64,000 nucleotides of DNA from the NCBI RefSeq assembly GCF_964355755.1, contig NC_092677.1:14468101-14532100 (forward strand), read 5' to 3'. The position numbers were made by a program, and so were the translations under genes. Of this stretch, positions 3,401-53,385 are shown one piece after another (the stretch's first letter is position 1; the number at the start of each line of letters is the position of its first letter). The notes under the pieces were generated by a model. That model saw only the letters and a list, made by a program, of their open reading frames with translations, did no database searches and was not told the origin of the DNA. This stretch comes from Antedon mediterranea. Taxonomy: Eukaryota; Animalia; Echinodermata.

Positions 3401-3495
3401 TGTGTATGATCAATATTCTTTCCTCGTTGATCTATTACCATTGCTACTTATGCCGTGTTATTATATATTAGCAGTTAAATTCGTGTCAATATTAT

Positions 3496-3589
<94 letters not shown>

Positions 3590-6500: not shown

Positions 6501-9500
6501 AGTGCAGATACAGATGACGTGGACCGCAGTGAGTGGCCTATCTACGACCCAAATCTTGTGGCAGAAGCCATGTTTGCAATGGCAAATATCTTCAGCTTTT
6601 GTCGATCGTTGCGGCTTATTGTTATTAGTGATCAAGTCGGACCGCTGCAAATATCATTAGGAGGAATGGTCGATGATATTACAAGGTAATAAGAATGATG
6701 CGTATTAAAACAACTCGATTTAGGTATTCCTTTCTACTTTCAGCAGTCAGTGTATTTAATAAAAACAAACCTAGATAAGATAATTATAATTTTCATTGTA
6801 GGAAAAATATTTGGAATTTTGCAAGTGTTGTAAATTTTTTTCTACAAATTGAGTGTATTCTTTTTTGCAACAAGAAGACACATTTCATACTGTACTATTT
6901 TGGTTTGTATGACAATATAAGATCTGTATCTGTATCTGTATATTGATGGTGTATATTAATTAATGTAGATATTTTACAGCTGTGTCCATCATGCACCTGC
7001 TAAGTTGCTAAAGAGTTGATGATATAGGCAAAGCGCCTGAATAAATGAACAAGAACGAATTGCCTATCGTGGGAACATCTGACTATTTTGTATATATAGA
7101 TTAGAAACAAACAACCTTCTGATCTGATTAATACACCATGTTTCTTTTAGGTTTTTGTTTATATTTACGTTGGTCTGGGTTGCATTTGCTCTTGGACTTA
7201 CGCAGCTCTATTGGCCATATTCACCAGAGGAGATCATTGAATGTATAGAGGCTGGAGAAACTGAACCAGAGGACTGCAGAGAAATGCCATTTGGCACGTG
7301 AGTTACTATTTTTCTATAGTCATTCCCTTCTACAAAGTTATTCATTACTTGAATTTTAGGTCTTGAAAACGTTAAGGGTACGACGCTTAATGTTATTCTT
7401 TTTTATGAATAGGTCCTGGCCTCTAGAATTGTTATCACTGACAAAATAAAAGAAACATAATGTTCATTGCTTCAATGAAAACTGTACCAACAAAAATTGT
7501 GTCATTTCTAGTAAGATTTAGATTTATCTTTACATTTTAGATTTGGTCACTCTATGGAGACTCTTTTTTGGGCGCTTTTTGGCCTTAAAGACCTTGATGT
7601 ATTGATGAGCAGTTCAACGCATGTCTTCACTGAAGCCGTTGGTCGCTTTATTTTCGCGTCGTATTACGTCATTGGAGTAATTATTTTATTGAATGTTCTC
7701 ATCGCCATGATGAGTAGTACATTTAGTCGAGTTGAGGTTAGTAGAATGTTATTCCTTCTCCTTCCCTTCATTGGTACTGTACCAGTGCTCAAATGATTAT
7801 GGTGATAACATTGTTGGCAGGTGGGCAGTGTCGTTTTAGGTGATGGTAGTAATGATGAAGATGACGAGGAGAATGATGGGTGATAACAAAGAGTGTATGC
7901 TGATGAGAATAATGATGAACATGATGAAGATGATTATCCTAAATGGTCAATAGCAATTATGAAGATAGAAGTGATGGTGAGAAAGTCCATAACGATACAT
8001 TATGTTTACAGAAATACTATTTTGTGCTTACTAGGAAGAAGCAGATATAGAATGGAAGTTCAGTCGTGCTGAGATGTGGATGAGTTACTTTGATGATGCC
8101 GCCACTGTTCCTGTTCCATTTAACCTCGTTCCATCACCAAAGAGTATATGGCACGTGATCAAAGAAATTATGCATTGTTGCTGTTACAAGGATGCGGCTC
8201 AGAAATCTAGAAATGTATGTTTATTTGCATAGATATAACATCTAATTTGAGAATTTGAGGAGCTTTCGATTTCCGACGACTAATGACGTCATCTTAGTTA
8301 ATTGTGCGCATGCGGGAATATTGGGACATGTGTACTTTCGTTTTATTAAGTTTCTTTTTTTGGCTCATTAAAAAAGAAAATTCTATACAATAATAATAAT
8401 TTAAATTGTACTATGCCACACTATGCATAGTATGTTCTTTAAATGTATATAATTCCCTAAATTAATAATTAAACGTTGTTTTGTTTTCAGAAATATGCCC
8501 AAAGAGTAGCAGAAAAAGAGAAGAAATATGATGTAGGTATTATTGATAAAAAAAAATCTTTTCCATTTTGTAGACCGGTACATAATATGTTCGAAACTGA
8601 GTAGGCCTATAAAAATGGTCACTTACAAATTAAAATTTTCGCTACGTTACATTTATGTTATTAGCATGACTACGGTATGCTTTCTCTAAGTTGTCTATGT
8701 GTTTACTCCAATGTTTAACTTCTCTAGCTTGATGACATTTTATTTACACTTTTTTAGGAGGTAGTGCATTTGTTGATCGCGCGTTATATTGCCGAAAAGA
8801 AGTCCGATCAGTATGACACTGAGGGCGCAGTGACGCAGTTGGACATCATTTCGGTTCGTCAAGATATCTCAAGTGTAAAGTAAGTAAAATAATGAATAAA
8901 TTATTATCCTTTCACCTAATATGGTAAATCATATACAAAAATGCCAATGATGCAATAAATATTGAATTTTTGTCACTGTACACAATTTTCACTATTTTAT
9001 TTAAGTATAATATTATACTTAGCCTCACGCAAATAAGCTCTTTGCAATTGCTATTGAGCAAATCAGTGCTTATTCTATTTGTTCTATTGATGAAAAGATG
9101 TATTTATTGATTGAATGGTAAAGAGAGTATTAAACGATTGGAAAACAGTTTATTTAGTTGATAAATCAGCTGATTAATTATCAGAAAATAGGAGAAATGA
9201 GCTTATTGGTACAGATTTGCGTTATACTGTGTAACCAGGATGTACAATAGGGCCTACTGTGAACTTCATCTTTCCGAATTTTCCCCATGAATCAAACCAT
9301 GTATCCAATTGTATAAGTATTCTGGAAAATCTAGTTATTTACATTAGATATACCAAATTTGTAAAGATAGTTCCTAACAACAATACTTGTTTTTATAACT
9401 ACATTAGAAATGAAATCACAGAATTTCTGAGGAAAATGGAAGGAACATTAACCCAGTGTAATGAGAAAATAACAAAGCTTTCAAAACGTGTACACACAAT

Positions 9501-10005
9501 AGAAAAGGTTGTTAAGAATGAGGATCCAGATTCAGAAACAGAGAGTGTCTTGTCAACCATAGATCGAAGACAAAACCGGTTTGCTTCAAAGGGTTTCCTG
9601 TCAGGAGGTGGAATGTTCGGCAGTTTATTTAGCAGCAGTAAAAGCAATTCAGATATAAGACTGCGTGTTCCAAATCCCTCGTACGGCACAGCATCGACAA
9701 TCGCCGCAGATGATGTACTTTCACGCAGTGAAGTTGAGAGCAACGTGGACGATTCGCGCCTAACTGCAGCTACTTCAATTGAGTTGGACTCAACCGATGC
9801 ATCAGACAGCTCGGATGAGGAAGACGGTGGCCTTGATAATGCAGGCTTTGATTTCGATCAACCACCTTACAAAAGAGAAAATGAATTTGGCGAGGAGAAA
9901 TCATCTACGATTGACAGTGAAGCACAGTTAGAGCCTGACCAAAGTCAAAGACCAGAATCGCCCACACTTGTCGGCTCGGTCGTGTCATTTTTCAAAAGAT
10001 TTTAG
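433..10005 (+). CDS. TRPC: Canonical-type transient receptor potential channel (TRPC-like), 15 coding exons, 944 aa from ATG 451 (an upstream exon may lie outside the window)
   Basis: GT-AG exons: 433-625, 1066-1184, 2851-2958, 3085-3330, 4476-4637, 4933-5123, 5631-5851, 6210-6349, 6498-6685, 7151-7297, 7541-7736, 8035-8214, 8491-8532, 8758-8879, 9408-10005. The sum is 2853 nt and the frame is continuous. TRPC motifs: ankyrin GDALLRAV and [47 protein letters not shown], pore TLFWALFG, S6 [12 protein letters not shown] box [25 protein letters not shown]. Subfamily not assignable. Confidence 0.93.
3499..3586. repeat. (TA)44 microsatellite in TRPC intron 4
   Basis: Uninterrupted TA run read directly. 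Confidence 0.97.
3587..3952. mobile_element. Non-autonomous TA-targeting (Tc1/mariner-type) MITE
   Basis: Imperfect terminal inverted repeats (TCGGATTTATTCGGATAAACGC / GCGTCGATTCGAATAAATACGG), TA on both flanks, repeated subterminal GGCGTTTATTC motifs. Confidence 0.65.
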
Positions 10006-21400: not shown

Positions 21401-24067
21401 GGAAGTTTCAATTATTAAATAAATAACAGAACTACACAATGTGTGTGGTTATTGATAGTAAAGTGCACCTGTTTACAATCACTTCTAATTTCTATTAGGT
21501 TATTTATAGAAAATTGTAATGGAAAATTATAAAATTGCTTGATATTTTTATAGGCCTAAGGTTAATTAAGTGCCGACTTTTTTCGAAGGTTTAGAACAGT
21601 GTTGTCAGGTGGGATATATCTTCTAGTTAGAATAATGTTAAGAAGTGTATTGATTGAATTGTGTGCTTCAGTAACTGATATTAATAATTTGACATGGCCT
21701 ACCGAAGAACCTCTATTAGGTGGACACTATCGGGACCCACCAAATGTGCACATATGTGTGTTTCCTAACATTTTGGCAGTGTACATTATCTATACCATAT
21801 CATTTTCCCACCTATCCCCACACTTATATATAACATTTAATATAATTTATCAAAACTACAAACTAAAGTTATGTTCCTTGTATAAATCTAGATTTATGCC
21901 AGTTATTTCTTCATATTCATTTTCTTCAGAACAGTTGTGTTATCCCACGTTTCACGATTTATAAGTATAAAAACAACAACAAAAAACAAATAACATTCAA
22001 TAATTTGTATAGGCCTACACTGCATTTACAAAGTTCTATGAAATGTTACGTAAATACCCCTTTTTAAATCGACCTTCTGTTCCCTTTGACTGGTTTTGGT
22101 GAACTCAAGCTTGCATTGTAGTTAGTTTTACTCTATATTTACAACATAACGATTGGTACAAATATTTTCTCTCAGAAGTAAGCATGCGTATATGGGATCA
22201 CCATCACGCGTTTCCAACATTACTCGAGAGCAGACAGTAATGATGCAAGTAGCGCGCAGTTTCAACGTAAAAGACGGACAGCTAAGCAGCGTTCTGGCGT
22301 GTGGAAACCCCGCCGAGGAGCGGCGACTTGCCACTCAGCTCAAGAAAATCGAAGATGAAAAAAGACGAAGAGAATCAACATTGGCTTGGAACCAACGGAA
22401 TTTCTTTATTAAGCAGGTATATTTAATTGCTGATAATTGTGTGGTTGTTTGTGTATTTTTCAAGTAAGATGGTACAATATCATAGACCAAAGTACAAAAA
22501 TGTATAGAACTACTTCATGTGAACAAAGGGGAATAGCCTAACTCCGCTCAATCTGATTGGTTTCGAATGGAAACACCTCGCCCCTATCACAAACCAACAT
22601 TTTGAGTGGTAATTGAATGTAGTTTACTCACTTCTTTATCTTCGATGGTTAATGTATTAAAATGAATTTATTATAAATCTAATAATGTTTGTTCTAAAAC
22701 TAATTAAATATCAAATTATATATAGTTATATATGAATATATCCTTTGGTAGGCCTGCTCCATAACCTTGCAGAGTTTCTTTCATTTTCTTTATAAGAAAA
22801 TTACACATTTTAATTTTTAAAATTACGAGAATGTGTATTCTTTTGATTGTGTGAAATGTGAATGGTGTTTGCAAATTGTCTTTATTATTTACAGGTGTTT
22901 GACCAAGATAATGAGTTACGATTTGTGAAAGTGTATGAGCGGCCATCATATCTAAAACAGACCGCTGCTGAAGATGAGTTTGAAGAAACAATACATCTTA
23001 GGCCTAAATCACGATCAGTGGATTTTGGGAAAGAGTCTCAACATGATAGGCCTAAATCAAAACCTCTCAGACGTTCAAAAACAGAGGGCGCACTTTTACT
23101 GCATCGAAAGAAGAAACACATTCTTGAGGATAAGTTTGACAGTTCTAAAATAGTGCAAAACGGGAAGGAAAATGTGGATCAAACTGAACATGTTTTAACT
23201 GATGATTTGCCAAAACTTACTCAAATAGACAGTATAAGAGTTAGTGAAGAAACTAATCCAGAACTCAAAGCGAAAGTAAAGTTTCCACTGTTAAAAGTGC
23301 GAGCCTTGGGTATTTTCGCAGCGTCTTTCAAACGCAATGAACAAAATGCAGGCAAAGAAAACACCAAATTGCCACCACCGATACAAGATGCTTACATCAC
23401 GTCAAATCTTAATGAAAATACCTCAACAACTTCAAATCAATCAAATACAAATGAGAAATATAGTAATAAGAAATATGTCGATACACTCGACAACGGACCA
23501 TTGGTTAATACTACTCACAACGAACAAAACGTAGATAAACATACTCATCAAGTTAACGGGAATGCAGTATCAAAAAATATACATATAAACGGAATAGTAC
23601 AATCAAGCAAAAAATATGTGAAGACAACCGAGTACAAAATAATGGATATAGGCTTAGAATCAACAGACAGATATAGAAATGGTGAAAACACAAGTTCAAA
23701 AGATAACAAATCGCGTGATGTATTAGGAAAGAGAAAGCAACGAGAAGGTAAAGTGAAACACTTCAAAGATCCAGAAAAGGACGAAAAGCTTCAAGTTCAG
23801 CAAGAAAAGGTTCTTCGGAAACTCGTCAGTACGCTACCAACTCACCTTCTTCTGAAGACTCATAAGAGAGAGAAGGAGGCCGGTGGGATATCAACTGATG
23901 AAGTAAGGAGGAAAATGATCGACAAGGCCCGAGCGGGAATGTCACAAAGGGTCTTGAAAGATCCTAGGTTTAAAAACTTAGAGGACTTTCTAAATGCTGG
24001 AAAAAACGCGACATACAATCCTGAAAGTTCCTCTACAAAAATATTGGATAATGATGATGACTATTAG
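18423..24067 (+). CDS. Uncharacterised 500-aa protein (N-terminal coiled coil, long hydrophilic region, C-terminal DPRFxxL motif), 3 coding exons
   Basis: Exons 18423-18511 (ATG, in-frame TAA upstream at 18393, donor GG|GTAAGC), 22176-22416 and 22895-24067. Phases 2 and 0 match and the total is 1503 nt. Contains the 401-aa ORF 22862-24067. Confidence 0.75.
18590..18814 (+). mobile_element. LINE (L2/CR1-group) 3' UTR or LINE-tailed SINE fragment
   Basis: GGACCCC...GGAAATAAACC...GGTTTTATTGGGTCATCC stem-loop-like motif, T-rich stretch and (ATTGA)n tail. Confidence 0.5.
18931..19380 (-). mobile_element. 3' end of a CR1/L2-group LINE
   Basis: Minus strand encodes NSTFYLLGIRDWNSLP (CR1/L2 ORF2 C-terminal WNxLP motif), then a 3' UTR with GGACCCCATTGGAAATAAG...GGGTTATCCTGG, AATAAA and a (CAAT)n tail. 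Confidence 0.7.
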
Positions 24068-25995: not shown

Positions 25996-26083
25996 TGCGA
26001 CTCTACAGCTCACTATGTCGGTCGGTCGGTTGGTCGGTAAACTCAAAGTTGAGCACGCGACTGCAGCCATATATATGCCCTTG
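25996..26083 (+). mobile_element. DINE-1/HINE-like short element (subfamily 2)
   Basis: GCGACTCTACAGCTCACTATGTCGG-(GTCG)n...GCACGCGACTGCAGCC; similar to 42070-42181. Confidence 0.55.
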
Positions 26084-26621
26084 GTGTACTTCATATTCCT
26101 TCTGGAAATAACATATTTCTGACTTACACAATTATACATTGTAAATTAGTCATTCAAAAATGTTTCTTAAACTCGTCACGCGCCATTAGATCAATTGGGA
26201 AGCATTTACATTATATTATACCTAATTCGAGCAATTGCTAATACAATACGGAACTATTCAAAAGTTTCCAATAAAACTAATTTCTATAAGGTACGTGCAT
26301 TTTGTTTTCAGCTGTGTGTTTATGATTGCTATATTTTTTAAAAGACAGGAGAAAATTAAAACAGCATACACATTTGTAATATTAATTTATCAAATTTCTA
26401 CTTTATTACACAGAAAACATAAAACTGTCATGAGCATGGTTTTTTTTAATTAGCTTCACAAATCACATTTCACTATTTTAATATTTTTTCCAAAAAAAGT
26501 TAGTATTTTACGTAAATGATTTACTGTACGTATCTTCTATTGCTGCGATCGTTTATTTGTGTATGTGATAGTGAACGTTATCTAACCATTTAGAAAGCAA
26601 ATCAGAGGAAAACCTATCTTG

Positions 26622-26794
26622 CAAGCGTCTTTCACACCTGCTCCGGCAAAAATAAAATCGTTCATTTTCATGCGCCAATCGTTTTACTCGATATGCGCGT
26701 AGCCGCATCGTGAAAATGAAAAAGCGTTGTACGCGCAATCTGACGCCACCTGGGAGCCGGAGTCGGACCGAAGCAGGTGTGAATAGATACGGTT
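26622..26794. mobile_element. Probable MITE remnant
   Basis: Inverted repeats CGTCTTTCACACCTGCTCCGG (~26626-26646) and CCGAAGCAGGTGTGAATAGATACG (~26768-26791) enclose a CpG-rich interior. Confidence 0.45.
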
Positions 26795-27061
26795 TAATAC
26801 TCTTCACACAGCTTGTTTTTTTAGTTGAATAATGCCTGAGATAATTTTATTCATAGAAATAAACTTAATTACAATAATATAAAGTATTATCATAGGCCCT
26901 ATATTTAAAAAAAAAGAAATTATAAAATAGCTGCATTTTGCAGTTTGTGCGTTTGTCTGCTCATAACTCAAAATAATGTTCACAATTCGATTCATATTTA
27001 GATTTTTACCAGTCTAAATTTACATACTGGTTAGATCGTTTCCTTCATGTCTCTTGTTAAG

Positions 27062-30000
27062 TTATGGGCCTAAGAAAGCGTTTATATGCATTCTGTGACA
27101 GCCATATATTTGTGGAATCGGAGCAAATTCTGCGTCAAGTTGAAACCCGTTAAATCCTGCGGGTATGCATGAGAATTGTTGCCTAGCTCCGACATCGACA
27201 CACCTATAAATCGAAAAATCAATTCATTAACAGTGTACTAAAGCTGTAACAATTTCCAGATCATTATTATCATTATTTTTTTTATTTCAGCAACATTGAT
27301 TTATAACCGAACATAAATAATGATATACATATACATATAATTGAGCATTAGGCATGTGTTTAAATTAACTTAAGCCGTTATACAAAAACATTAATACATA
27401 CCGGAATATATTATATAATATCAAAGAACTTATAACACAAGAATCTCCTGTTCTTCAATTTGCATTCAAAACACAGTATCGGAAGTACAGGGTTAAAAGG
27501 TCAAACTGGGCGACGCCATTTCACAGCATGGAGCAGCGCCCCCCTCCAAACTAGGAAGTCAATTACTCTACCCCCCCTAGAGCATTAGCAGAACCCCTCT
27601 ATGATTTTGACTTTCTAATTTGATGCGGGCGCCCTACTCCTCAGTCAATTACTCTATACCCCCTAGAGCATTAGCAGAACCCCTCTATGATTTTGACTTT
27701 CTAATTTGATGCGGGCGCCCTACTCCATGGCTCACAATGGCGCCACCCATAGCTCTATTCTATCCCACAATGCCTTTCGAAATTGTTACGCGCTTCGGAC
27801 GAACAGGAGATTCTTGTGTTATAAGTTCTTTGATAATATCAATACTTATATATTTATATAAAATCAAATAAATATAAAATTGTAAAGCTCTTTCTACACT
27901 ATCAAACTTCATGTAACAACAAAATACAATCTGCCCATATATGGTGGACATCATATCACTACCATATTTGGGCACATGACACTTGTTTTCGTTAAACTGG
28001 ATAGTTTAGACAGATCAAGCATTATATGAACACATACCGACAATAGTCATCCCGTCCATCGTGGTTTTTATCTCGCATGTACCATGTGTTTGGATACCCA
28101 GGAACAAATACTCCTGCACCTGTCACGTTATAGTTCATCTCTCCCTCAATTGCTGAACCAGCCAATGCGCATGTGAGGAAATATGAGGCTCCATTTCTTA
28201 TGATCCTGAAAATACGAGTGATTTAAATCAATTACAGTGCAGATGGTACGAATGAGCTAGTCAAATGGCCGAATGGTTAAGACAGGGGCGACCACAGTAT
28301 CGGTATGGATTCGAGGCCGACTCTCTCCTAGTGAAACAGGTCTTCTCAGATAAACCTTAGGTCCGGTGTACACATTTTGTCCGTGTGCACTGTAAAGAAC
28401 CCAGTTCATTATTCGAGACGAGAATAGTACAGACAAAGCTTTAGAGAGATAATAAATATAAATATAATTCACCTGCAGAAATCATTGGCTACTCCCTGGT
28501 CTTGTACGTCAACAAATCCGCTAAACATGGATGGAACTCCTTTGTGTTTAATTCCATATTGTCGAGGCTGAATCTTCGTCCCAAACCTGGGACTGTTTAC
28601 TACGAAAAAATATAAATCAAAACAAATTGAATAACATTAAACTGCACCATCAACATTTAAAATATTTGTATATTCAAAGAATATACATCCGAAGAATAAG
28701 GCAATTCGGATTTTCTGTAGCAATAATAATTTCATGGAGAAGAGCTCAGCATACGTCTGGGTGTATCTGAACCTGTAATGTTGAATTCGAGACTTTCACT
28801 CTCTATTTCCTCCTGAAAACGTGACCGATATTTGTACTGTTTGGGCTAGGGTGCTTCTAAATCTTCGATATTGTGCATTATATATTAGAACCACGAACAT
28901 GTGTTTTACACCAATTTCTACACAATTACACGTCACAAAGTCGCATTGAGGGAAAATACACATGTCTTTTCGTAGGACGGTATCAGCTTTGCTATTTACC
29001 TTGTGGAAGATCCTTAACTGCAATCGATCTGGTTTCAATTGGTCCGTAACCAAGATAGTTCACAGCTCTTATGGTGAATATATAAATGCCTGGTCTTAGA
29101 ACTCCACTGTTGTATTCTGTTCGGGTAACAGATACAACTTCTTTGTGCATTAACCCTGTTTCTGGCCTAGACATTGTTATCTCGTAATGTCGCACCTCAG
29201 TTCTTGTGTGGAAAGGTCCGGTCCAAGTAAGTTTGACTCGATTTCTTTGTACCTGTCCTATCATGAGACTTTTAATTGCCTGAGGTGGTCTTGTCTCTAA
29301 AGAAAAAACACATCCGGTTTTATTTATTTGTGTCTATTAGTTAAATGAATTTTACTATTAACATATTCTAGGTTTTAAAAAAATGGTATGATTTAGCAAC
29401 TTTGGATATGTTTGATTATTGGCATAGTAAAATACTTTTCGTGAATAGTTAGCACAGTATTATCTAATATGATTAATTAAGTTTGTAATTAAACAATGCG
29501 ACAATTATTATCTTTTACCTGCTAAACAGTCATGGTTAGACTTTCCTAAGCCTGGTAGTGGAGTACATGCCAGCTCTTTTGGCCAATCTACTCTAGACTT
29601 GAGCATAGCAACAGCGCATGTTTTCTGAACATCACGGCATGTTTCTCGACATGGAATAAACGATGCACCACCATCACATGCGGGAATGTAGGCTGAGCAA
29701 AGGAAATTTTGAAGTCGATGAGAGCACCCAGAGTCGATCAATTCCCTCCATCTCTCCAATTCACGCGCAGCTTCCTCCTGTGTCTGGTGGCCGAACATAT
29801 TCGGAAAGGAGGTCATGGAGAAGCCTACTTCTTGACATATTGGAACTCGTACTTGTTCACAGAAATCACTGTGTCCTAAAATGAAAAGAAAATGAAGATG
29901 TGGTAATTATTAAAACAAAACTTGAAAAATAAATTCAAAACAAAAGGAAATTGCAGTTATTTCAACGTTGTAAATTATTGATGTATGAAATGCTATTTAC

Positions 30001-33000
30001 AAACAGAGAGAGAGGAAGTTGTGGTAGAATCTAGTCATATAAGTTTGGGTATGTCCCACATTAAGTAGGTAAGTATAATGATGATTATGATATGGTGCTC
30101 CTATCCACAAAAGAAAAAAAAACACTGCTGCTATGTTCCTATTACTTACTACTTCCTGGACGTATACTATGGATAAGATTACGACGATTTAGTGCTTGTA
30201 TTGGTCTGAAGTTGTCAACAATTGATTCAACAGAAGTTCCTTTTATTGCTTTCAACATTCTGAATCGTGACATCTACAAAAGAATACAAAAATTTAAAAA
30301 TTAAACTTCAAACTTCCATCACTTCGGCTTATATATGTAGACAAATCTTCAATGTGTCTCATTTACCATTCGGCACGTCGTTTCGTTAGTTTGTCGCTTG
30401 TTATGAAGCGGCAATACCACGTTGACTACGGACATACCACGTTGACTACGGCCATCATAGCACATTGAAACACCGGTTCTCGGCAGATTACCGAAGTTAG
30501 CTAACGTTGGGTTTGATTGCGTTCTTGGATAAGAGAACGTCGGAGAATATCGGATGCTGTATAAGACCAGAGAGTGATGGTGTAATGATAAGGAATTGGA
30601 CTAGCATGTGATAGGCATAAGGAATGATGCATAGGATGCTGATCTGCATAGAATACAACTATTATACATGACTGTATTCATTATGTTTCTTTTTAAAACT
30701 TTTTAAAAATTACCGTTGCTGGAGAAACACAAATTGGCCTTTTGAAAACAGTCCACACAACACTTTCCCAGCATCCGGGTGTTGTTAGAGAACCATTATA
30801 ACGATAGTAATCATCCATCTTAGCACCTTTGATAAGATCTCCAAGTTTGATGAGTTGGGTCATTGTAACAGGAGTGTCAGCTAAAAAAAAATATTTAGGT
30901 CTTCTTTGTAATTCTTCCATATCCATAAAGAATAAAAGATAAAGATAAAATATACAGATTGAAACAAGCTCTCTTATTATGTAATAAACTGTTTCCAAAC
31001 AACTTAATTCCTAACTGTTCAAGTGTTAGAAAATAGTACATAAAGAGGTTCTTTGTGATTATAATTACTTATCATTACTTTGTCCACAATAATGTGTTTT
31101 TGATAAAGATTGTGTATAAGATTATCAAACATACATTGTCTTTCGATACTTGGTATATCAACGCCAAATTTTTCAAAAGCTGCATTTGTTGGTACGCATA
31201 CCTGCAATGTAAATTATAGTTATTTTTTATATGCATTAATGGTAATTATTACTATAATATTCTTGATTTGTTTAAGCAAGGCAATCTAATAACAGAACGC
31301 TAAACTCGCCCTGCCAAGATAGGAACTCGTTACCAGTCCTTTGATCATGTCTGACTGCGAGAAATACCAACAGTACTGTACTATGTACGGTGTCCAACCA
31401 TTTTGGGAAACCAATAGGTCAATCGGAACTCAATTAAAAAGGTGGGGCGACGTGGAATTGATTGTGTCGCAGCCACAGATAAACCCTTTGATCGGAGCAC
31501 AGCATCATTTGGTTAGATGTTGTGTTGATGTTTAACCATGTATACAGACCAGAAACTGTGTGCATCACTTACATCAATGAAAAATCCGAGTACAGCCAGT
31601 CCTCTTGGTGACTTGATTGCTGTGGCTACATCCGGGTAGGTTGTGTTATCCCAGTGCACAATATGCAACTGAAAGAATGAAATATATATTTAAAAACAAC
31701 CTGAACTAAACATTTTTTTAATGATTAGGTTAATTGTTTCAACATTTTAATTTATCTTACTTAGTAACACTAATAATACCAATTGTTATAAGATAATTGA
31801 TTTTTTTTTATAGTATTTAGTTATTTAAATATTTTAAACATAACAATATTTTATATTTTATACATTATCATAAGAATTCGCGCATTCAATGATATTTTTG
31901 TATATTTTCTATCAACTTTTTTTTTTTCATTTTGGGGGTTTTTTTCCCATGAAAACTTGGTTTATCTGTTTGGTCGGTTCTTAATTGTTTGTGTTGAACA
32001 AATAAATAATTGAAACAAACAAATTAATAAATGGAATTATTTTTAGAGGACATATTTAATTTCATACTTGTGTTTGTTTATGTACGTTTCTTTCTCATTT
32101 TAGTTTCTTTTTTTTGGTATTAATAGTAGTAGTTTTGACTTTTTGACTTGGTCTCAGTGGTCATGAGTTTTGTAATTAATTTGTTATTTAAAATACGGAA
32201 ATAGGCTGCATTAGGTTAATTAAGATAATTGGTAACGAAACACGTACCACTCTGTATCCGTAGCTTGTCATTGAAACACAGTTATAATGTTATAAATAGA
32301 TAATTCGAACAATACAGAACAGTATAAAAGTGGTATGTAAATTGATAAAATTCATTTCTTACTAACATACAGATGCTAGTTATTTAATTTATTTTTGCTT
32401 AAGAACATCAAAGTAAACCGACAAAATGAACATAATTACTAATTTTATTATAAAATAACATATTCCATATACATTAATATTATTATGGTGAATTTAAAAC
32501 TTTGTAATAACAAAGTTATAAGAATACACAGAATATGGGAAGTTCAAAGTTCATGGAATTAAAAAAAAAGTACATTTATTTCACAGTTTGTGTCCATTAA
32601 AGGAACTGGTTAGGCCTATGAATACAATTAGGATATTAGTAAAACTTTATATCAAATGATCTCTTTAATTAGTTTTAATTAATTTAAAGATGTATGGGTA
32701 TGTGTTTGTTTCTTACCTCAGCAGGATAAAATTTAGCGTTGAGGGCGTGTTCTGATCCACGATTATTTTTAGCTCCCCAATGCAAATGAAATTGTAGTGC
32801 TTTGTAAGTACCACCGAGACTGCCACCAGATACAGAATAGTCTTTTAGTAGATCGACAGAGGCTGAGATCAAATGAGAAAACAAACATTTTTAATTACTT
32901 CAATCTATCTGCATTATACATTTAAAAGTTAACTTTGTACTTTAAAATTTGAATTGACTGCTATACCAAACATTGAGTTATCTATTTTTCAATTTTAAAC

Positions 33001-35782
33001 TTACAGGAAATTTTTTTCATAATAATTAGTGCCTTGTATAAGAAAAAAAAATTATATTATGTTTAACATACCTGTATGTCCATTGTTTCTTAGTTTCATA
33101 ATACCTGGCGCTGGGGCATCAAAGTAACCTCCCAACTGGAAGCTGCCCAGGTCAGTTTCCTCTGCTATTGTGTCATCTAGATTTATTGGTGATTGATTCA
33201 GACCACCGCATTGACTATATGTTGTTTTCCAGAAAGAAGGTCCTAAAAATAATATAAATTGTATAAATATTTATATCTAAAAATATTTCATCTCTATTGC
33301 AAATAACTTCATATTCGATTTAAATTATTCATATACTTGTATTTCGTTTAAAATATTCTAAAATAGACATTTTGAAGTGATCTCATTCTATATATTAAAT
33401 TTATTAAACATAGATCATATGCAACAATCTACATAGTTGTGCAGCAAAATAGTAAAAAAAAAATATTTATCGCGAAAATATATTGTAAAACAAGAATTTA
33501 GTGCTATTTACTGTACAATTACTGCTTACTGTAGGTTAAATATATGTTTTACCTTTGTTGTCCGGTCCATAGGTCCAAGTAGCTGCCCCTAAAAAAGTAT
33601 TTTAAAAGAATAATGGTTTTAGATACTATATTTAAGAACTGAATATTCAACAAGATAATTGAATTGTGAGTTGTTGACGAAACTATTTCAAATATTTTTT
33701 TTTTTGTAATATGTAAAGTAGGCCTATTCATACTATATTTCTTAATGACCCAAAATCTTCAAATGTTTATTACTTGATATAGTTTATAGAAATACAGAAA
33801 AATAGCATTTACTACAGTAGGTCTAAAAGTGAAGAAGCATGAGATTCATTTTTGTGATACAAAAGTGAAGTGGAATATAGAATTATTTGAGCTGGCACAA
33901 TTAACTTTAGCTCAATTATGCAACTAATCACTAGGTCAAATGTCATTTATTTTTAGGTCCCCTATCACGTGATTTGTTCGTGTTTTATTAAAGTCTGGGT
34001 TAAGATCCCTTTCTGTCGTATATAAAGGAAATGGAAACGACGTGTGTATGACTAAAATGACACGGACAGATTTTCCCCTGCTGATCGTTCAAAGTTTCTG
34101 TTGGCTTTTTGACATCCTTTATTAACTTCGCCAGAATGACACATCGGTCATAAACTCAGCACATAATCAAACATATCCTTAACACGTGTATTACCGGCAA
34201 AAAATCTAAAAGATTTTTGCAAATTGAAAATAACTTATTTATTCAAATTAAAACGTAAACAGTTTATTTAATGATAATCGGATCTGAATTAAATGATTAC
34301 TGTACATTACTTTAAACTAAACAAGTACCACCACAATACAATTCATATCTATACTTTTATCAAAATTGCTATTCTACAAGAATAGTGAAAGTATACAGGA
34401 TTGTTTGTTTTTTGTGTTATTTTTTGGTAAAACTTTAAAAACATAATTAGTAGGCCCTATTGTTATATTTCTTTATTCTAAATTTTTCGTTAAAATCAGT
34501 GAAGAGTGAACTTCCCTGGTTGACACTGCAGTAAAAATAATTGAATTTGATTTAGTAAATGCAAGTAAACAGAGTTAAATTTTTAAGAACTATTACTTTA
34601 TTCTGGTATTTAAAAAAAAAATTAATAATTAATCACCATTTCCCTATACATGTGTCATCACATAATGTCGTTACGAATGTTTCTACTTTCGTTAAAAAAT
34701 AAACCATATCACTGAGATTAGCAAGTGAAAATAAATGCTTTTTGTTGATAAGTTAAAAGTATAATTGATTCATTTGAGTAATAAGAATGTTTTTAGTTTT
34801 CGTAATTTTTATTGATGATTAAAAAAGGAATCGGTCGGGGGTACTTGTAAGGATATTTTTGGCTAAAAACTGATACAACTAACATTAACAACATCAATAA
34901 AAACATAATTAACTATTTTGTCGCCAGACTGTTATTTGTCTCAATTCTTTGGGTTAAATGATTACTCATTTAGTAATAACTAAAAGTGTATATATATTCA
35001 AAGAATATATTAGACGAAAGCGTCATATTTCTAATGTAACACATTTTAATGTTCAACTAAAAGAAAGAGGAAATGAAGAAGGCTACCTAAATCACCCTTC
35101 CATTACAATAAACCTCTGAGCATACTATTCTTTTTTTTCTACGTGAAAAAGATACACTAATAGCCAATAAAATATACAAAATTAAACATCCTTTTTTTTT
35201 AAATTTGTTGTTTGTATGATCACCTTTTTCCAAATCACACATTAGGCTTGTTATCATTAAGTTCATGATGTTAAATATTATATATAATTCAAGTAATCAA
35301 CGAATTTTGTTTAGAATTAAAATAATAATTACACGTTTTAATAATGTGCTGCATATACAATTTACAACATAATTCTAAACTATTAATATAAATATCTTAT
35401 ATACTGTACAATGAATGCCTTTTTATTAACAAAATTAATCATTTCAAAACATAATTACATTATAATCGAGTAGTGAACTTGATAATACCTAAACTATAAT
35501 CGTTTTTTTTTATATCCTTTTGACAAAAACTTCTACATAATTTTACTATTTGAATACTTGCATGCGAGCATAATGTTACAGTATAGGCCTATTTCAATGT
35601 TGGTCTCTTGTAGAAAACCAAGAAACGTCAAAACATGCCATTATACATAACACAGCAAATTGATGAATGATATTCCAATTCCATAACAGTCAAAATGATT
35701 TTATATTAAAATAATGATATAAACTAAACTTACCAGTTGTGATTGCACAAGTATATAAAGTAGCAAGAATCAACGAGTACAT
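27062..35782 (-). CDS. Secreted mosaic protein: signal peptide - alpha-carbonic anhydrase - Frizzled CRD - fibronectin type III - uncharacterised Cys/Asp-rich repeat domain; 13 exons, 648 aa
   Basis: Exons (minus): 35782-35734, 33588-33553, 33242-33072, 32862-32717, 31668-31573, 31201-31135, 30880-30714, 30273-30150, 29875-29519, 29296-29000, 28599-28473, 28205-28038, 27203-27062. The sum is 1947 nt, in frame. CA motifs: [68 protein letters not shown] with all 10 Cys (CEQVRVPIC...[14 protein letters not shown]...). FN3: LTW...Y...[14 protein letters not shown]. No transmembrane segment. Confidence 0.88.
27422..27832. mobile_element. P-superfamily-like MITE with internal 86-bp tandem duplication
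   Basis: Perfect 32-bp TIR CAAAGAACTTATAACACAAGAATCTCCTGTTC; 7-bp TSD ATAATAT (27415-27421, 27833-27839); internal duplication 27557-27640 / 27643-27726. Confidence 0.8.
27886..28016 (-). mobile_element. PIF/Harbinger-type MITE, family AGCTCTGTCTACACTATCAAA (degenerate copy)
   Basis: AGCTCTTTCTACACTATCAAAC...CATATCACTACCATATTTGGGCAC...GATAGTTTAGACAGA. Confidence 0.75.
28257..28425 (+). mobile_element. tRNA-derived SINE remnant
   Basis: Pol III A-box TGGCCGAATGG (28266) and B-box-like GGATTCGAGGCC (28307), no cloverleaf, non-tRNA body follows. Confidence 0.5.
30409..30563 (+). pseudogene. Degenerate 5S rRNA pseudogene (or SINE3 head) with tandemly reiterated 5' end
   Basis: GACTACGGCCAT...TTGAAACACCGGTTCTCG..GATTACCGAAGTTA..AACGTTGGG...CTTGGAT...GAATATCGGATGCTGTA follows metazoan 5S along its length with many substitutions. 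The 20-nt 5' unit (ATACCACGTTGACTACGG..) is repeated upstream. Confidence 0.75.
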
Positions 35783-35904
35783 ATTGCAAAAAAGTCTTTT
35801 CCACGCCGTATTTAAAACAAAAATTCTATATGTGTAACTGGGTACCTGTCTTACCGACCAGCAGCAGACGATTGTATGAAATGGATTGTTTGCAACGTTA
35901 CCTC

Positions 35905-35916
35905 CCTTTTAATAGT
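35905..35916 (-). promoter_or_regulatory. Candidate TATA-like box of the CA-CRD-FN3 gene
   Basis: GGGACTATTAAAAGGGAGG on the minus strand about 125 nt upstream of the ATG, with GC-rich flanks. Confidence 0.35.
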
Positions 35917-46068: not shown

Positions 46069-47888
46069 TAAGAGCCTATTGATGTGGAATATTTACATTA
46101 TTTACTTTCCATTATAAGCGTTGTTTGCCAATTGCTATACAATTTTTTTGTGAAGTTGACTAAGGGAGTGTTTATATTAAACCATGGACCGTGGACGTTG
46201 AAAGCTAGTAACATATTTCTTTCTGTCGCCACGAAAAACGTACGATAAACTACAGGCCTACGATTTAAACTTAGGAATAGGTAGGTGTTCTTTTATTGTA
46301 CCTTTCCATTGCATAACGTAATTTACTTCTTATCAAAAAGGTGTAGTTTACTACTTTTGTTCGTTTATTATAACGAAAACTAGCCTATAATGAGAACTCC
46401 ATAACACTATACATATACACTTGTAGACGATTATCTCCTAACTTATAGTGACCAGAGCAATAATGGTAAAGTTTGTTGAGAAACCTTAAGTTTATCAAAA
46501 TCATTTAGTTTGCCTACTTGGTCCAGTAGTTCATTACCCACATTTCAGTGACGATAAAGTCGATCCAACAGCGATGACACACAGAACATTGGATCACAAC
46601 TACAACTACTACGTTTTCTGTGTTTAGCAAGCTAGGACACAAAACAATGTCCATATGATTTGAAATACCCAGTATTTGATGCATATATAGCTATATTATG
46701 TATAGCTATATTGTATACCAGTGAACAGTGGGTAGATTACATAATAGCATTGATATATATATATATATATATCAAAGGAAAATGCAGCTTAAGGTTGTTT
46801 TTTTTTTTCATTTTATTGCATATCAAAATCGCAGCCAATAGCTGAATTACATGATACTTACAAATATAAAAACATTTAAAACAGGCATATAACAGTAAGA
46901 TGATAAACATTCAATTAAACAGATAAAGTAATAAGTAACGCGACAATATAAGAGATAACAAAACGAACAAAGGAGTAAAATAATTAAACGAAGAAGACTA
47001 TACTATCTAATACTATACCAAATAATTAAAAAAAAAATAAAGTAAAACGACCACCACGAAGACCAAAATTAGAACAGAATATAAAAAAAAAACATCTTGC
47101 CCTAAACACAGAAAAATGGAATCAAATCATGGAAAGCGTAAATTATGAATAATGGAAAAGACGTGTAAGAGAGGAGGAGAGGACCTAGTTGGGGTCAACA
47201 ACCCACCTCTTTATTAACATTACTGTATTTGTTTTGATTATTTTCTTTGGCGATATCTCCTTTTTTATTTCTCCAAATCATCACTGTATTGTAGGATTTG
47301 GCATTCATTTCTTTAGGCCTACAACTATCTAGACTTTGATATTGTGCTCTATTACATTTAGATTGATTTTCGATTCCATAGTAAAATAATAATCATACTA
47401 AAATTAGTCCTCTCAGGCCTATGAACCATCTTCCGATAGTTTAGGCCTTAGCATTGTAGTAACGTGATACCCACTATTAGTCGGATAATATGCCTCCAAC
47501 TCCTTTTTTCTCTCTTTTTTGACCTTAGTTGACACGGCAAACATCAACATGTATGTTTAGTCACGAATTCTATTCAAAAGTTAGCAAAGGTATACACCGT
47601 TAAGGAAAATCAATCAAAATTGCCATTCTTCGATTGTTTCTCTTTGAAGTTAGGACATGCACAATAGAAACGGTATGAACTCTTTATATAGCAGGGGACT
47701 CTAGTCCGGTCAAACTGCGGTTCGTTCAAATTTAATTTACCGCAGTCATATTTTAGACAGCGCCCTAAATATTTCGTTGCCGTGCGAAACAGATTTTTAC
47801 TGGCTTACGAATACGTGTGCGTTACGTATCAGTTTTCGTTATCGTAATAACATTTCCATTTTTTTATAAGGTTGACAGGGAACATAGC

Positions 47889-49295
47889 ATGAAGAAAAAG
47901 AAATTTACAATAATCCTTGCATTTGCCATTATTACTCTATACTTTGTTATCTTCCCGGATAATAATGTAACATTTAAAGAATTCCTGCCATCTATCAGTC
48001 AACAAACAGAGGACGAAAGCGAAATATACGATGTTATACGCAAACAATACACTATTGATCAAAGTGTTCAAAATGGATCTATCTGTTGTGGTGAATTTAT
48101 AATCGACGAATCTAAATACACGACTTCTTATCCACCAGACGGATCGTGTTATTTCAAAGATAGTTTAAGAAAGTCTGGGCTACCAGATCTACATTCAGCT
48201 TTTGTTGATACAATTGGAGATTATGTAGTTTTTATTGGATTACAGTTTTCAACAAACAAGTGGAGTTCTCGAACGTTTTTCTGCGAATTTCCAGATGGTG
48301 AAAGAACTATTAACAATCCTATCTTAGAGGATAAATTAAGCTTTGGATGGCTTCCACAATATATAATTGTAATAACTTGTGAATTACCCAAAAAATATAA
48401 AACAAGACTCAATTTTCAGATGAATTTTAGAATTTTGCCAAGTGCAAAAACTAATATAAATAATGTAGAAAGTGGTAGTGAAGACACAGTCGCCTACGAC
48501 AATTTGACGGTTTGTCAAACAGGTTCGAAGCAAAGACACTTCTTATCAATGTGTACAATGGTTAGGGATGTAGATGAATTTATCCCTTCATGGTTACAAT
48601 ACCACAAGTATATGGGAGTAGAGCATGTTTACATATATGACAATGCCGTAAACGAAAGTAACAGCAGTTCTCTGATCACATCGTTGAGGGAGTTTATAAA
48701 TTCAGGATTTGTGACTGTGGTTCCATGGGGGCATACCAAATCACCTTCAAAGACGTATCTGGAAATACAGATTGCTCATGAAAACGACTGTTTGTGGCGT
48801 CATCGACATGATTCCCTATGGATGATTAAAACTGACGTTGATGAATATATCCAACCAATGGATTCGAAAAGACCTAAAATCACCGACTATCTAAAAGATC
48901 CGAAGCTGTATACATTAGGAGGAATAAGGATTCAAAATTGGTTTTTCGGTCGACCTCTAAATTCAACTACCCGCAATGGTACTATAATAGAGAGGAATAT
49001 TTGGAGATCAAAATTGCCTACCATCCTAAATACAGGTCATGATAAAAATATTTTAAGACCAATGAATGTTCACTATTTTAAAATACACGCTATTAAATTA
49101 GGAAGTGGGCATAAAACATTAGATCCTGTGAGTGAGCTGAGAATGGTGCATTACCGTGGAGATAATCCAAGGCATCGCAGCTTTAAACTGCCACCATTCG
49201 ATGTTAAAGATACTACTATGGTAGAGATATGGAAAGCAGTGCTAAAAGATAAAGAAGGTTTGACCATTCCTATGCCTTTAGACAACGAAATATAA
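47889..49295 (+). CDS. Glycosyltransferase family 92 (DUF23) type II membrane protein, single coding exon, 468 aa
   Basis: MKKKK followed by hydrophobic anchor FTIILAFAIITLYFVIF; LSMCTMVRD..FIPSWLQYHKYMGVEHVYIYDN; QIAHENDCLWR; WMIKTDVDEYI (DxD motif); C-terminal MVHYR. Splice acceptor at 47870. Confidence 0.88.
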   Translation: MKKKKFTIILAFAIITLYFVIFPDNNVTFKEFLPSISQQTEDESEIYDVIRKQYTIDQSVQNGSICCGEFIIDESKYTTSYPPDGSCYFKDSLRKSGLPDLHSAFVDTIGDYVVFIGLQFSTNKWSSRTFFCEFPDGERTINNPILEDKLSFGWLPQYIIVITCELPKKYKTRLNFQMNFRILPSAKTNINNVESGSEDTVAYDNLTVCQTGSKQRHFLSMCTMVRDVDEFIPSWLQYHKYMGVEHVYIYDNAVNESNSSSLITSLREFINSGFVTVVPWGHTKSPSKTYLEIQIAHENDCLWRHRHDSLWMIKTDVDEYIQPMDSKRPKITDYLKDPKLYTLGGIRIQNWFFGRPLNSTTRNGTIIERNIWRSKLPTILNTGHDKNILRPMNVHYFKIHAIKLGSGHKTLDPVSELRMVHYRGDNPRHRSFKLPPFDVKDTTMVEIWKAVLKDKEGLTIPMPLDNEI

Positions 49296-52087: not shown

Positions 52088-53385
52088 ATGGGACGCCGAA
52101 AGTGATGGTTATACAGCTCTAGACTTTGCTCCATTAACAAAACAGGAATATGGAAGGGCGTTATACTTCCCATTATTGTATGTTTCGCAACTTCTACTTA
52201 CTATAACCACAAGATCGCATTATTAACCAAGATAATACAGAAGTTAAATCAAGAAAAAGATGTGTCTAGAACAAGGGTCATCAAACGCATTCCTGAATTC
52301 ATTTCTGTGTTAGATATAAGGAAAAACGGGTCAGCATATGTTTATTCATCACCACGAAACTCAATGTGTTTCTTCAATCCACTCAATATTTTCAGATCAC
52401 GTGGCAGGAAGCGTCGTCATGGTCGGTGTGAAATTTCAAAAAGACACCTGGCATGAAGATATTTTTAATTGTAAATTTGACAACGGTGATGTTACAGTTT
52501 CAGATCCAATCGTGAACAATTTTAAAAGTTTTGGTTTTCTACCACAATACGTAGTGGTTATTACATGCCCTCTACCAGAACAATACAGTCATAAAAATGG
52601 TTTTACTATGTCATTAGAACGGCTTGTACCTTTTCCAATAGAACACAAATACTCTTACGATAACTTTACTGTCTGCTCTGCCGACGGTTTCCCGCCAAAA
52701 TCAAACTTTTTAGCAGTGTGTACAATGGTTAAAGACGTGGACGATTTCATTCCTTCTTGGATTGAATATCATCATTTTATGCGTGTAGAACATTTCTATA
52801 TATATGATAATCAAATTGAAATTGATAGTACATTAAAAGAGACAGTCGGTATGTTTATTAAAAAAGGTATTGTAACAATCATTCCATGGGCACATAGACA
52901 TTCACATTCTAAGACATATTTAGAAGTACAAATTGCTCACGAGAACGACTGTGTGTGGCGACATAAACACGGCACAAAATGGATGATCAACATTGATGTC
53001 GATGAATATATACAGCCCCTGGATCCATCTAGACCGAACATTCCTGATTATTTTTTGACAAAAGCTTCGAGAAACTAGGATCTATCCGCGTGCAGAATTG
53101 GTTTTTTGGTAGACCAACCAACGTGACGGCAAAAGGTACCATAATTGAGCGAAATACTTGGCGCCCTTCGAATCCTTCGGAACTGAATGCAGGTCACGAT
53201 AAGAACATTCTTCAGCTAATTAACGTACATTATTTTAAGATTCGTGCTATAAAACTAGGAGGAGAAACGCGTTCTGTAGACCCTTGGACAGATCTTAGGC
53301 TTGTTCATTACTTCCGAAGTTCAATGTTAAAGATGCGAGCATGGTGAACATTTGGAAAAAGATTCAGCATAAAAAACAAAAGTGA
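52088..53385 (+). pseudogene. Disabled GT92 paralog (tandem duplicate of 47889-49295)
   Basis: Strong similarity (SFGFLPQYVVVITCPLP, CTMVKDVDDFIPSW, SKTYLEVQIAHENDC, QNWFFGRP, GHDKNIL). Lesions: in-frame TGA at codon 6 (52103), frameshift with deletion at ~52380, frameshift at ~53060-53078, deletion/frameshift at ~53310. Confidence 0.85.

Follow-up and report, generated by a model that had tools for sequence, protein, structure and literature searches.

Lineage-specific domain shuffling is ordinary, and accessory domains on secreted carbonic anhydrases (CAs) are a known theme, as in nacrein and the fish CA6-pentraxin. Here we describe a gene in the window, a 64-kb stretch of DNA of the crinoid Antedon mediterranea, in which an alpha-CA domain is followed by a Frizzled cysteine-rich domain (CRD), an FN3 domain and a C-terminal module of two repeats. 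Of the described systems that come closest, the sea-urchin enzyme Cara7 is, according to the accessible part of its description, extracellular, required for calcification and provided with both a glycosylphosphatidylinositol (GPI) anchor and a glycine-rich region (PMC9546546), and the available portion of a proteomic account (PMC2909932) ranks it first in abundance among the CAs of four skeletal matrices. PTPRG and PTPRZ (phosphacan) resemble the crinoid protein in an N-terminal CA fold and one FN3 domain; for these R5 proteins an excerpt of PMC11215419 states that the CA-like domains lack two of the three zinc histidines and the proton shuttle, and that splice forms can be secreted.

The explanation that we favour, and to which we give about an even chance, is that one crinoid gene encodes a secreted, active alpha-CA which its CRD-FN3-module tail tethers to partners in the matrix or at the cell surface, fixing the conversion of CO2 and bicarbonate outside the cells. 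The signal peptide would direct the product out of the cell, where the intact CA domain would hydrate CO2, and the tail would bind extracellular matrix or cell-surface partners, replacing the GPI anchor of Cara7. Hydration confined in this way might be put to use in calcification, in the balance of acid and base or in the exchange of gases, and the tissue concerned may be skeleton-forming stroma, epidermis, gut or mucus. If this is true, a crinoid CA held by a protein tail is a testable candidate for the extracellular supply of bicarbonate without a GPI anchor. An earlier, sequence-only reading of the locus had proposed that the enzyme is coupled to Wnt or lipid binding or to matrix anchoring; the analyses below favour the matrix anchoring and weaken the Wnt/lipid part.

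Gene model and transcript

The gene was rebuilt from 13 minus-strand exons (35782-27062), with all 12 introns following the GT-AG rule, and splices into 1947 nt that encode 648 aa and a single terminal stop. The one 648-aa frame proposed earlier was recovered in this way, and it is identical letter for letter to RefSeq XP_071958256.1 of A. mediterranea, which was also the one match among six candidates in a protein search with exon 12. Since the RefSeq model may derive from the same genome, the identity backs the choice of exons and is no independent proof of expression. Pfam matched Carb_anhydrase at residues 29-280 (E 3e-73), Fz at 291-393 (E 2e-27) and fn3 at 414-491 (E 4e-6; 27.4 bits, cut-off 25), and gave no match to residues 504-648. 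Introns 1, 8, 9 and 10 are all in phase 1. The surrounding window is AT-rich eukaryotic DNA; a second copy of the gene was not found in it by tblastn, and an Atlas search with the whole 648-aa protein gave no usable match.

The coding part of exon 1 (35734..35782; this and all other features of the gene are on the minus strand) encodes residues 1-16 and is followed by a phase-1 intron. These residues are predicted to be a signal peptide from their hydropathy (1.34 at residue 1) and from the exon layout, the N-terminus standing on its own exon both here and in the orthologue of the crinoid Anneissia japonica, which has 653 aa and the same four domains. The highest 19-residue hydropathy window (1.63, at residue 157) is a buried CA strand common to soluble CA II, and therefore no transmembrane segment is predicted; hydropathy thus bears out the earlier claim of a secreted-type protein without such a segment, and the product is likely to be secreted. 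Judged by hydropathy, the 648-aa protein has no GPI-type C-terminal signal either, its C-terminus being the repeat module. Since the protein, unlike Cara7, has neither a transmembrane segment nor a GPI-type tail, the CRD-FN3-module tail is the evident candidate for keeping the enzyme at its site. A TATA-like element at 35908..35914, approximately 130 nt upstream of the ATG, is a putative promoter by pattern match only.

Five sequencing runs, none of them recorded as RNA, were considered, and two of the five were aligned to the locus. Run X2 is a DNA run, and run X1, which comes from a different study than the four DNA-like runs, is RNA by guess. Contigs of X1 show the joints between exons 1 and 2 (33586>35733), 9 and 10, 10 and 11, 11 and 12, and 12 and 13, and skip introns 9, 10, 11 and 12 precisely, whereas those of X2 do not. 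The 29000/28599 junction (exons 10 and 11), proposed earlier as a place to check the model, is spliced in X1 and absent from X2. An X1 contig of 1723 nt has a depth of 46.8, and its first 781 nt run through exons 11, 10 and 9; a joint between exons 2 and 1 and a variant within exon 3 share this depth. Together exons 1-11 amount to 1638 nt, which leaves 85 nt of this contig for the 5' untranslated region (UTR). Its end is calculated at 35867, approximately 40 nt downstream of the TATA-like element, although contigs cannot reveal a start. A uniform depth of 46.8 over exons 1-11 predicts 9 of the 16 exon-containing bins to within 1.0, including four over exons 1-7 (exons 6-7, 4, 3 and 1); the remaining seven bins are higher, several of them through repeat pile-ups, and no bin falls short of the prediction by more than 0.12. 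Because the 1723-nt contig fits exons 1-11 by size and depth, we infer the joint of exons 8 and 9, at which the CA meets the CRD.

Perhaps gene prediction has merged two adjacent genes, one for a plain CA and one for a Fz-FN3-repeat protein; the tail has genes of its own in other animals, translation past the exon-8 donor meets a stop after two residues, and the joint of exons 8 and 9 is not among the 15 listed of 103 joints. However, intron 8 has only 274 nt, contains neither AATAAA nor ATTAAA and is hardly long enough to hold a promoter and a signal-peptide exon, and the peptide across the CA/CRD junction is conserved in A. japonica (11 of 13 residues identical). On intron 8, the conserved junction and the 1723-nt contig we rejected the merger, which is extremely unlikely, and the CA, CRD, FN3 and module almost certainly belong to a single gene.

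The RefSeq isoform X2 of Anneissia (P0002) stops after the FN3 exon, and read-through of the Antedon donor at 29000 reaches a stop after two residues; both crinoids may therefore make a short isoform that lacks the C-terminal module. A low-depth contig of run X1 lies over intron 11.

Carbonic anhydrase and Frizzled domains

The CA domain was compared with CA II and CA XIV as structural references, taking as the CA II positions, by our assumption, the zinc ligands 94/96/119, the shuttle His64, the gate Glu106/Thr199 and the pocket Val121/Val143/Leu198. The domain starts in exon 2 (33553..33588, aa 17-28) with the conserved Trp and the equivalent of Tyr7, and exon 3 (33072..33242, aa 29-85) contributes Cys40 and the proton-shuttle His84. 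Zinc ligands His111 and His113 are encoded with Glu123 in exon 4 (32717..32862, aa 86-134), and the third ligand, His136, with pocket residues Val138 and Val160 in exon 5 (31573..31668, aa 135-166). Exon 6 (31135..31201, aa 167-188) carries an extra Cys168; exon 7 (30714..30880, aa 189-244) carries Leu220, Thr221, Thr222, Cys225, Trp231 and an extra Cys239; and exon 8 (30150..30273, aa 245-285) ends the domain, ahead of the 274-nt phase-1 intron. The three zinc-binding histidines are present in both crinoids, and the shuttle His84, the gate Glu123/Thr221 and the pocket Val138/Val160/Leu220 are kept in the alignment to CA II and CA XIV. Cys40 and Cys225, equivalent to Cys23 and Cys203, align with cysteines of CA XIV and are predicted to form the extracellular disulfide. 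All 18 catalytic, pocket and disulfide positions that were checked are identical in Antedon and Anneissia, and every motif on which the sequence-only reading had called the alpha-CA intact was found, so that the domain is likely to be catalytically active.

In its alpha-CA fold, zinc triad, shuttle, Glu/Thr gatekeeper, extracellular disulfide pair and predicted extracellular location the protein is like the secreted or membrane-bound alpha-CAs, with CA XIV and CA II as structural references and Cara7/Pl-CAN as the sea-urchin case. It differs from Cara7 in having neither GPI anchor nor glycine-rich region, and from plain secreted alpha-CAs in the added CRD, FN3 domain and repeat module and in Cys168 and Cys239. 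These two extra cysteines are conserved in both crinoids and may form a second disulfide.

The presence of a CA and an FN3 domain in one secreted-type chain, the RefSeq label given to isoform X2 of Anneissia ('receptor-type tyrosine-protein phosphatase gamma-like') and the secreted R5 splice forms mentioned above could all be explained by a PTPRG- or phosphacan-like ectodomain, in which the CA fold would be a binding or sensing module and not an enzyme. This is highly improbable, given that the zinc histidines and the shuttle are all kept in two crinoids, the CRD stands between the CA and FN3 domains, and neither a transmembrane segment nor the D1/D2 phosphatase domains were found in the model. 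Orthology to PTPRG is excluded on these features, in agreement with what had been claimed from the sequence, and the RefSeq name is a mis-transfer that this analysis corrects.

A tree of CA domains was made from 49 rows, all of them this analysis's own matches. In it seven CAs, two from Amphiura and five unnamed, form the sister clade of the crinoid pair, with support of 90/87 (not starred). Two members of this sister clade, P0017 (Amphiura) and P0019, consist of a secreted-type alpha-CA with a C-terminal Somatomedin B domain.

The CRD is encoded by exon 9 (29519..29875, aa 286-404) and the FN3 domain, which is basic (pI ~10), by exon 10 (29000..29296, aa 405-503), both exons being of phase 1-1 and spliced in X1. 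All 10 conserved cysteines of the CRD are present and PF01392 matched above its cut-off, so that the 10-Cys CRD and FN3 of the earlier description stand with their Pfam matches. The best matches of the CRD are those of Frizzled proteins (FZD10, E 2e-23; FZD4, 4e-23), with Smoothened at 2e-8. Between Antedon and Anneissia the CRD is 92% identical, the highest of the four domains (CA 82%, FN3 73%, C-terminal module 67%), and it appears from this sequence comparison to be constrained to bind something.

One possibility is that the protein is a Wnt or lipid binder similar to the secreted Frizzled-related proteins (sFRPs), in which the CA would couple local pH or bicarbonate to Wnt signalling. The 10 cysteines, the Frizzled-type best matches and the 92% identity between crinoids are consistent with it. 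Groove positions were then mapped, through the alignments to FZD4 and FZD10, onto lists from partly accessible papers. In the Fz8 channel list (PMC6873803) two of eight positions are identical, with Q71, P74, I78 and Y125 replaced by Arg, Glu, Ser and Ser, and in the FZD4 groove list (PMC5458758) one of six is identical in the Antedon CRD; the available text of the latter paper reports that single changes at these FZD4 positions block Wnt-induced oligomerisation. The Antedon groove reads R327, W328, E330, L331, S334, M376, S379, V381 and P384, and is still hydrophobic at W328, L331, M376 and V381, which speaks for a binder, but its hydrophobic score is 4/7, as compared with 5/7 in Anneissia and 7/7 in Saccoglossus P0061. 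This loss is modest for the family: of 148 segments, 22 had gaps and were set aside, and 35 of the 126 complete CRDs scored 4 or less and 29 scored 7. Furthermore, the Pfam scan found no NTR domain, so that the protein shares with sFRP and Sizzled the secreted-type chain and the 10-Cys CRD, and differs from them in this respect as well as in the remodelled groove and the fused enzyme. Because the lipid groove is partly remodelled, canonical Wnt-lipid binding by the CRD is doubtful; the earlier proposal of Wnt or lipid binding is weakened by the Arg, Glu and Ser at several of its positions, and we regard the sFRP-like role as rather improbable.

The C-terminal module and the origin of the fusion

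The remainder of the protein is encoded by exon 11 (28473..28599, aa 504-545), with the first D[YF]CR repeat, exon 12 (28038..28205, aa 546-601), with the second repeat and a DxNxDGxDD motif of calcium-loop type (591-599), and the coding part of exon 13 (27062..27203, aa 602-648 and the stop), which ends the module without a hydrophobic tail of GPI type. All three are spliced in X1. A probable 3' UTR follows at 26500..27061, with X1 contig coverage to the edge of the region aligned and AATAAA at 26851 and 26557.

The module consists of a pair of D[YF]CR repeats at a spacing of 53-61 aa, and across 72 sequences it has six invariant cysteines and a near-invariant DxNxDGxDD loop. A search with a six-sequence profile found it in crinoids, sea stars, brittle stars, sea urchins, sea cucumbers, hemichordates, molluscs, annelids and a priapulid, where it trails Fz, FN3, Ig, CUB, LDL or SRCR domains. 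In all 94 collected proteins that have a single match of 100 bits or more (isoforms not merged), the module lies 35 aa or less from the C-terminus, and 72 of these 94 carry a CRD; a snail protein of 148 aa is the module alone. The domain had been called novel, and it is indeed unnamed: Pfam gave nothing (DUF7057 in one of six sequences, at E 0.02), the best match in a PDB sequence search was a chance one (DDX41, E 0.44), and the literature searched, mostly titles and the starts of abstracts, holds no description of it. It is not unique to this protein, however, as the profile matches in 94 proteins, mostly of echinoderms, hemichordates, molluscs and annelids, rule out.

The same profile matches proteins with mostly 3-9 repeats, many carrying FG-GAP_3 (among 150 listed of 702), and PF13517 proteins with E down to 1e-51. 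These multi-repeat relatives are bacterial or metagenomic and are predicted to be propellers; two come from Acidobacteriota, and GTDB loci place such repeats in cyanobacteria and actinomycetes. Atlas features gave 0.94 for an FG-GAP-type assignment of the module. An AF2 model of the module of a homologue (P0176), made with 72 sequences, has a pLDDT of ~97 in its core, whereas a full-length run with three sequences gave 34. With the P0176 model, Foldseek listed integrin-alpha in all 45 rows (best E 0.02, which is weak), and in VIA propellers came top (best Z 6.8, rmsd 3.3 over 108 aligned residues; PVL lectin 6.5), the fold matches being to integrin-alpha, TcB and PVL-lectin propellers. Taken singly the fold results are weak, but the modelled fold agrees with the sequence and the Atlas features in pointing to FG-GAP-type blades. 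On this reading the two repeats would each form a propeller-like blade, the second of them bearing a calcium loop. With FG-GAP/VCBS propellers (bacterial D[YF]CR proteins, integrin alpha, PVL lectin, TcB) the module shares the 53-61-aa repeats and the DxNxDGxxD loop, and its modelled, blade-like fold resembles theirs weakly; it differs in having two repeats and not seven blades, in its six invariant cysteines and terminal motifs, and in lying below Pfam detection. Two blades cannot close a propeller ring alone. Two-blade lectins that trimerise exist, and by analogy the ring of the module may be closed by oligomerisation, or the module may be a disulfide-closed monomer. Judged by its sequence, the protein resembles a secreted alpha-CA and is not a PTPRG/PTPRZ, an sFRP or a complete FG-GAP propeller.

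In 8 of 35 non-animal relatives scanned the repeats are attached to peptidases M12, M23, S8, M57, astacin or CHAP, and repeats that trail secreted-type enzymes in this manner suggest a targeting role. A broader and fairly speculative idea, to which we give little credence, is that the module is an animal domain which arose when bacterial FG-GAP propellers were trimmed to two blades, that it would oligomerise, as a trimer for instance, into a calcium-dependent propeller lectin or adhesin and serve secreted invertebrate proteins as a general C-terminal targeting tag, and that crinoids and a prokaryote-type lineage independently added a CA to it, which would give the crinoids a multivalent, matrix-bound CO2 enzyme for skeleton building. 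A propeller-derived domain that is invisible to Pfam and ends dozens of uncharacterised secreted proteins of invertebrates may matter more than the CA fusion itself. The prokaryote-type case is P0261, whose 650 aa comprise a signal peptide (predicted), an alpha-CA of non-animal type that keeps its His ligands, and several FG-GAP repeats of the D[YF]CR kind. Its CA is only 29% identical to that of the crinoids and has a different His motif, which argues for an independent pairing of CA and repeats; a GTDB scan with P0261 gave at least 68 loci with repeats, none of which, among the matches listed, spans its whole CA domain. Environmental proteins of ~500 aa (P0127 and P0131-P0158, 29 of 120 listed) combine an N-terminal hydrophobic segment, the module and a LamG-type PF13385 domain.

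A CA together with a CRD was found only in the Antedon protein and two Anneissia isoforms among the 287 proteins collected. In the whole-protein search (6079 candidates, lengths 356-1134) 2 of 41 matches carry CA and Fz, both from crinoids, and with the C-terminal profile a CA occurs in one of the best 120 of 195 matches. As these searches were word-seeded or drew on listings of top matches, restriction to crinoids is likely and not proven. The expectation that the CA-CRD-FN3 architecture is not widespread was thus upheld within the proteins searched, and that it is undescribed agrees with the literature searched, which consisted mostly of titles and abstract starts with few subscription journals. 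Both crinoid proteins are already in RefSeq, as uncharacterised or mis-named entries.

The tail itself has many relatives. Saccoglossus P0061, Patiria P0051-P0054, Antedon P0056 and the Plakobranchus 'Robofrizzled' P0105 have one or more CRDs, often an FN3 (in others Ig or CUB), and then the same module, ~40-50% identical; most of these Fz-CRD proteins have no transmembrane segment. They differ from the crinoid protein in having no CA domain, and many keep the canonical lipid groove. The combination of Fz, FN3 and module, without CA, occurs in Patiria, Saccoglossus and Amphiura. Phase-1 introns 1, 8, 9 and 10 make the CA block, the CRD exon, the FN3 exon and the C-terminal block splice-compatible, and since the CRD-FN3-module architecture without CA is found in a hemichordate and, among echinoderms, in both sea stars and brittle stars, the simplest history is that a CA was shuffled onto such a tail in crinoids. 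These sequence features make it likely that the fusion arose there by exon shuffling, through which a secreted CA of echinoderm type would have been grafted via phase-1 introns onto a tail of the pre-existing Fz/FN3/repeat family. The Antedon protein P0056 has nine Fz domains and the module, and its longest contig matches that of the present gene (P0001) in size; in Amphiura, one of two CA matches (P0018) is on a contig matching in size that of 11 module proteins (P0045-P0073). These agreements are a weak hint of linkage between donor and acceptor genes.

Possible roles and neighbouring sequence

The enzyme could have a more specific role in the skeleton, as a matrix enzyme within the stereom space that is bound to calcium or mineral by its C-terminal loop and supplies bicarbonate for calcite, in the manner of a Cara7 counterpart. 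The crinoid CA does group with echinoderm CAs (90/87) and the DxNxDGxDD loop is near-invariant across the 72 homologues; besides the central place of extracellular CAs in sea urchins, with Cara7 as precedent, a red-coral skeletal proteome, in the part of it available, lists two Frizzled-domain proteins (PMC7853314). However, the protein is basic (pI 8.5) and has no acidic or glycine-rich low-complexity region, the module is common in animals and in proteins with no evident skeletal link, and no crinoid expression or proteome data were found in the literature searched. The word 'frizzled' occurs zero times in the text and two supplements of a Patiria skeletal proteome, and zero times in the main text of a sea-urchin spicule proteome. 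We consider this skeletal role, which the earlier reading had raised for the case of an echinoderm host, possible but unlikely.

Several observations weigh against the tethered extracellular enzyme that we favour. The CRD is more conserved than the CA (92% versus 82%), a pattern that points to a specific ligand and is as compatible with signalling as with tethering, and the annotated Anneissia isoform P0002 has no C-terminal module, so that part of the tail may at times be dispensable. The CA tree omits Cara7, and its crinoid pair sits on a long branch. The CA/CRD joint is missing from the joints listed for X1, itself RNA by guess, and the fold matches of the module are weak, none of them reaching Z 8, the level of a common arrangement. 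Enzyme activity, localisation and binding are each predicted from sequence.

Within the introns of the gene, high-copy repeats lie at 27168-28169 (intron 12), 30174-30507 (intron 7) and 31176-31509 (intron 5), and the contigs of these intron repeats have depths of hundreds to tens of thousands in both X1 and X2.

Elsewhere in the window, a multi-exon gene of TRP-channel type occupies 433-10002 on the plus strand; its ankyrin-like start is below the Pfam cut-off, Ion_trans matched at E 1e-8, and a peptide near 8035 is one that we take to be TRP-box-like. Open frames of 105 and 401 aa lie at 22150-24064 (+), the longer of them without a Pfam match. Two open frames for GT92 glycosyltransferases were found at 47769-49292 and 52320-53344 (+), of which the second goes on in another frame at ~53048-53075 and may be frameshifted or interrupted. 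On the minus strand, 54848-56797 holds an open frame of 650 aa that is rich in proline and has many Tyr motifs, short repeats in tandem and a weak Abi_HHR match below the cut-off. A repeat with a GACC-type microsatellite recurs near 26000, 36650, 43000 and 53900.

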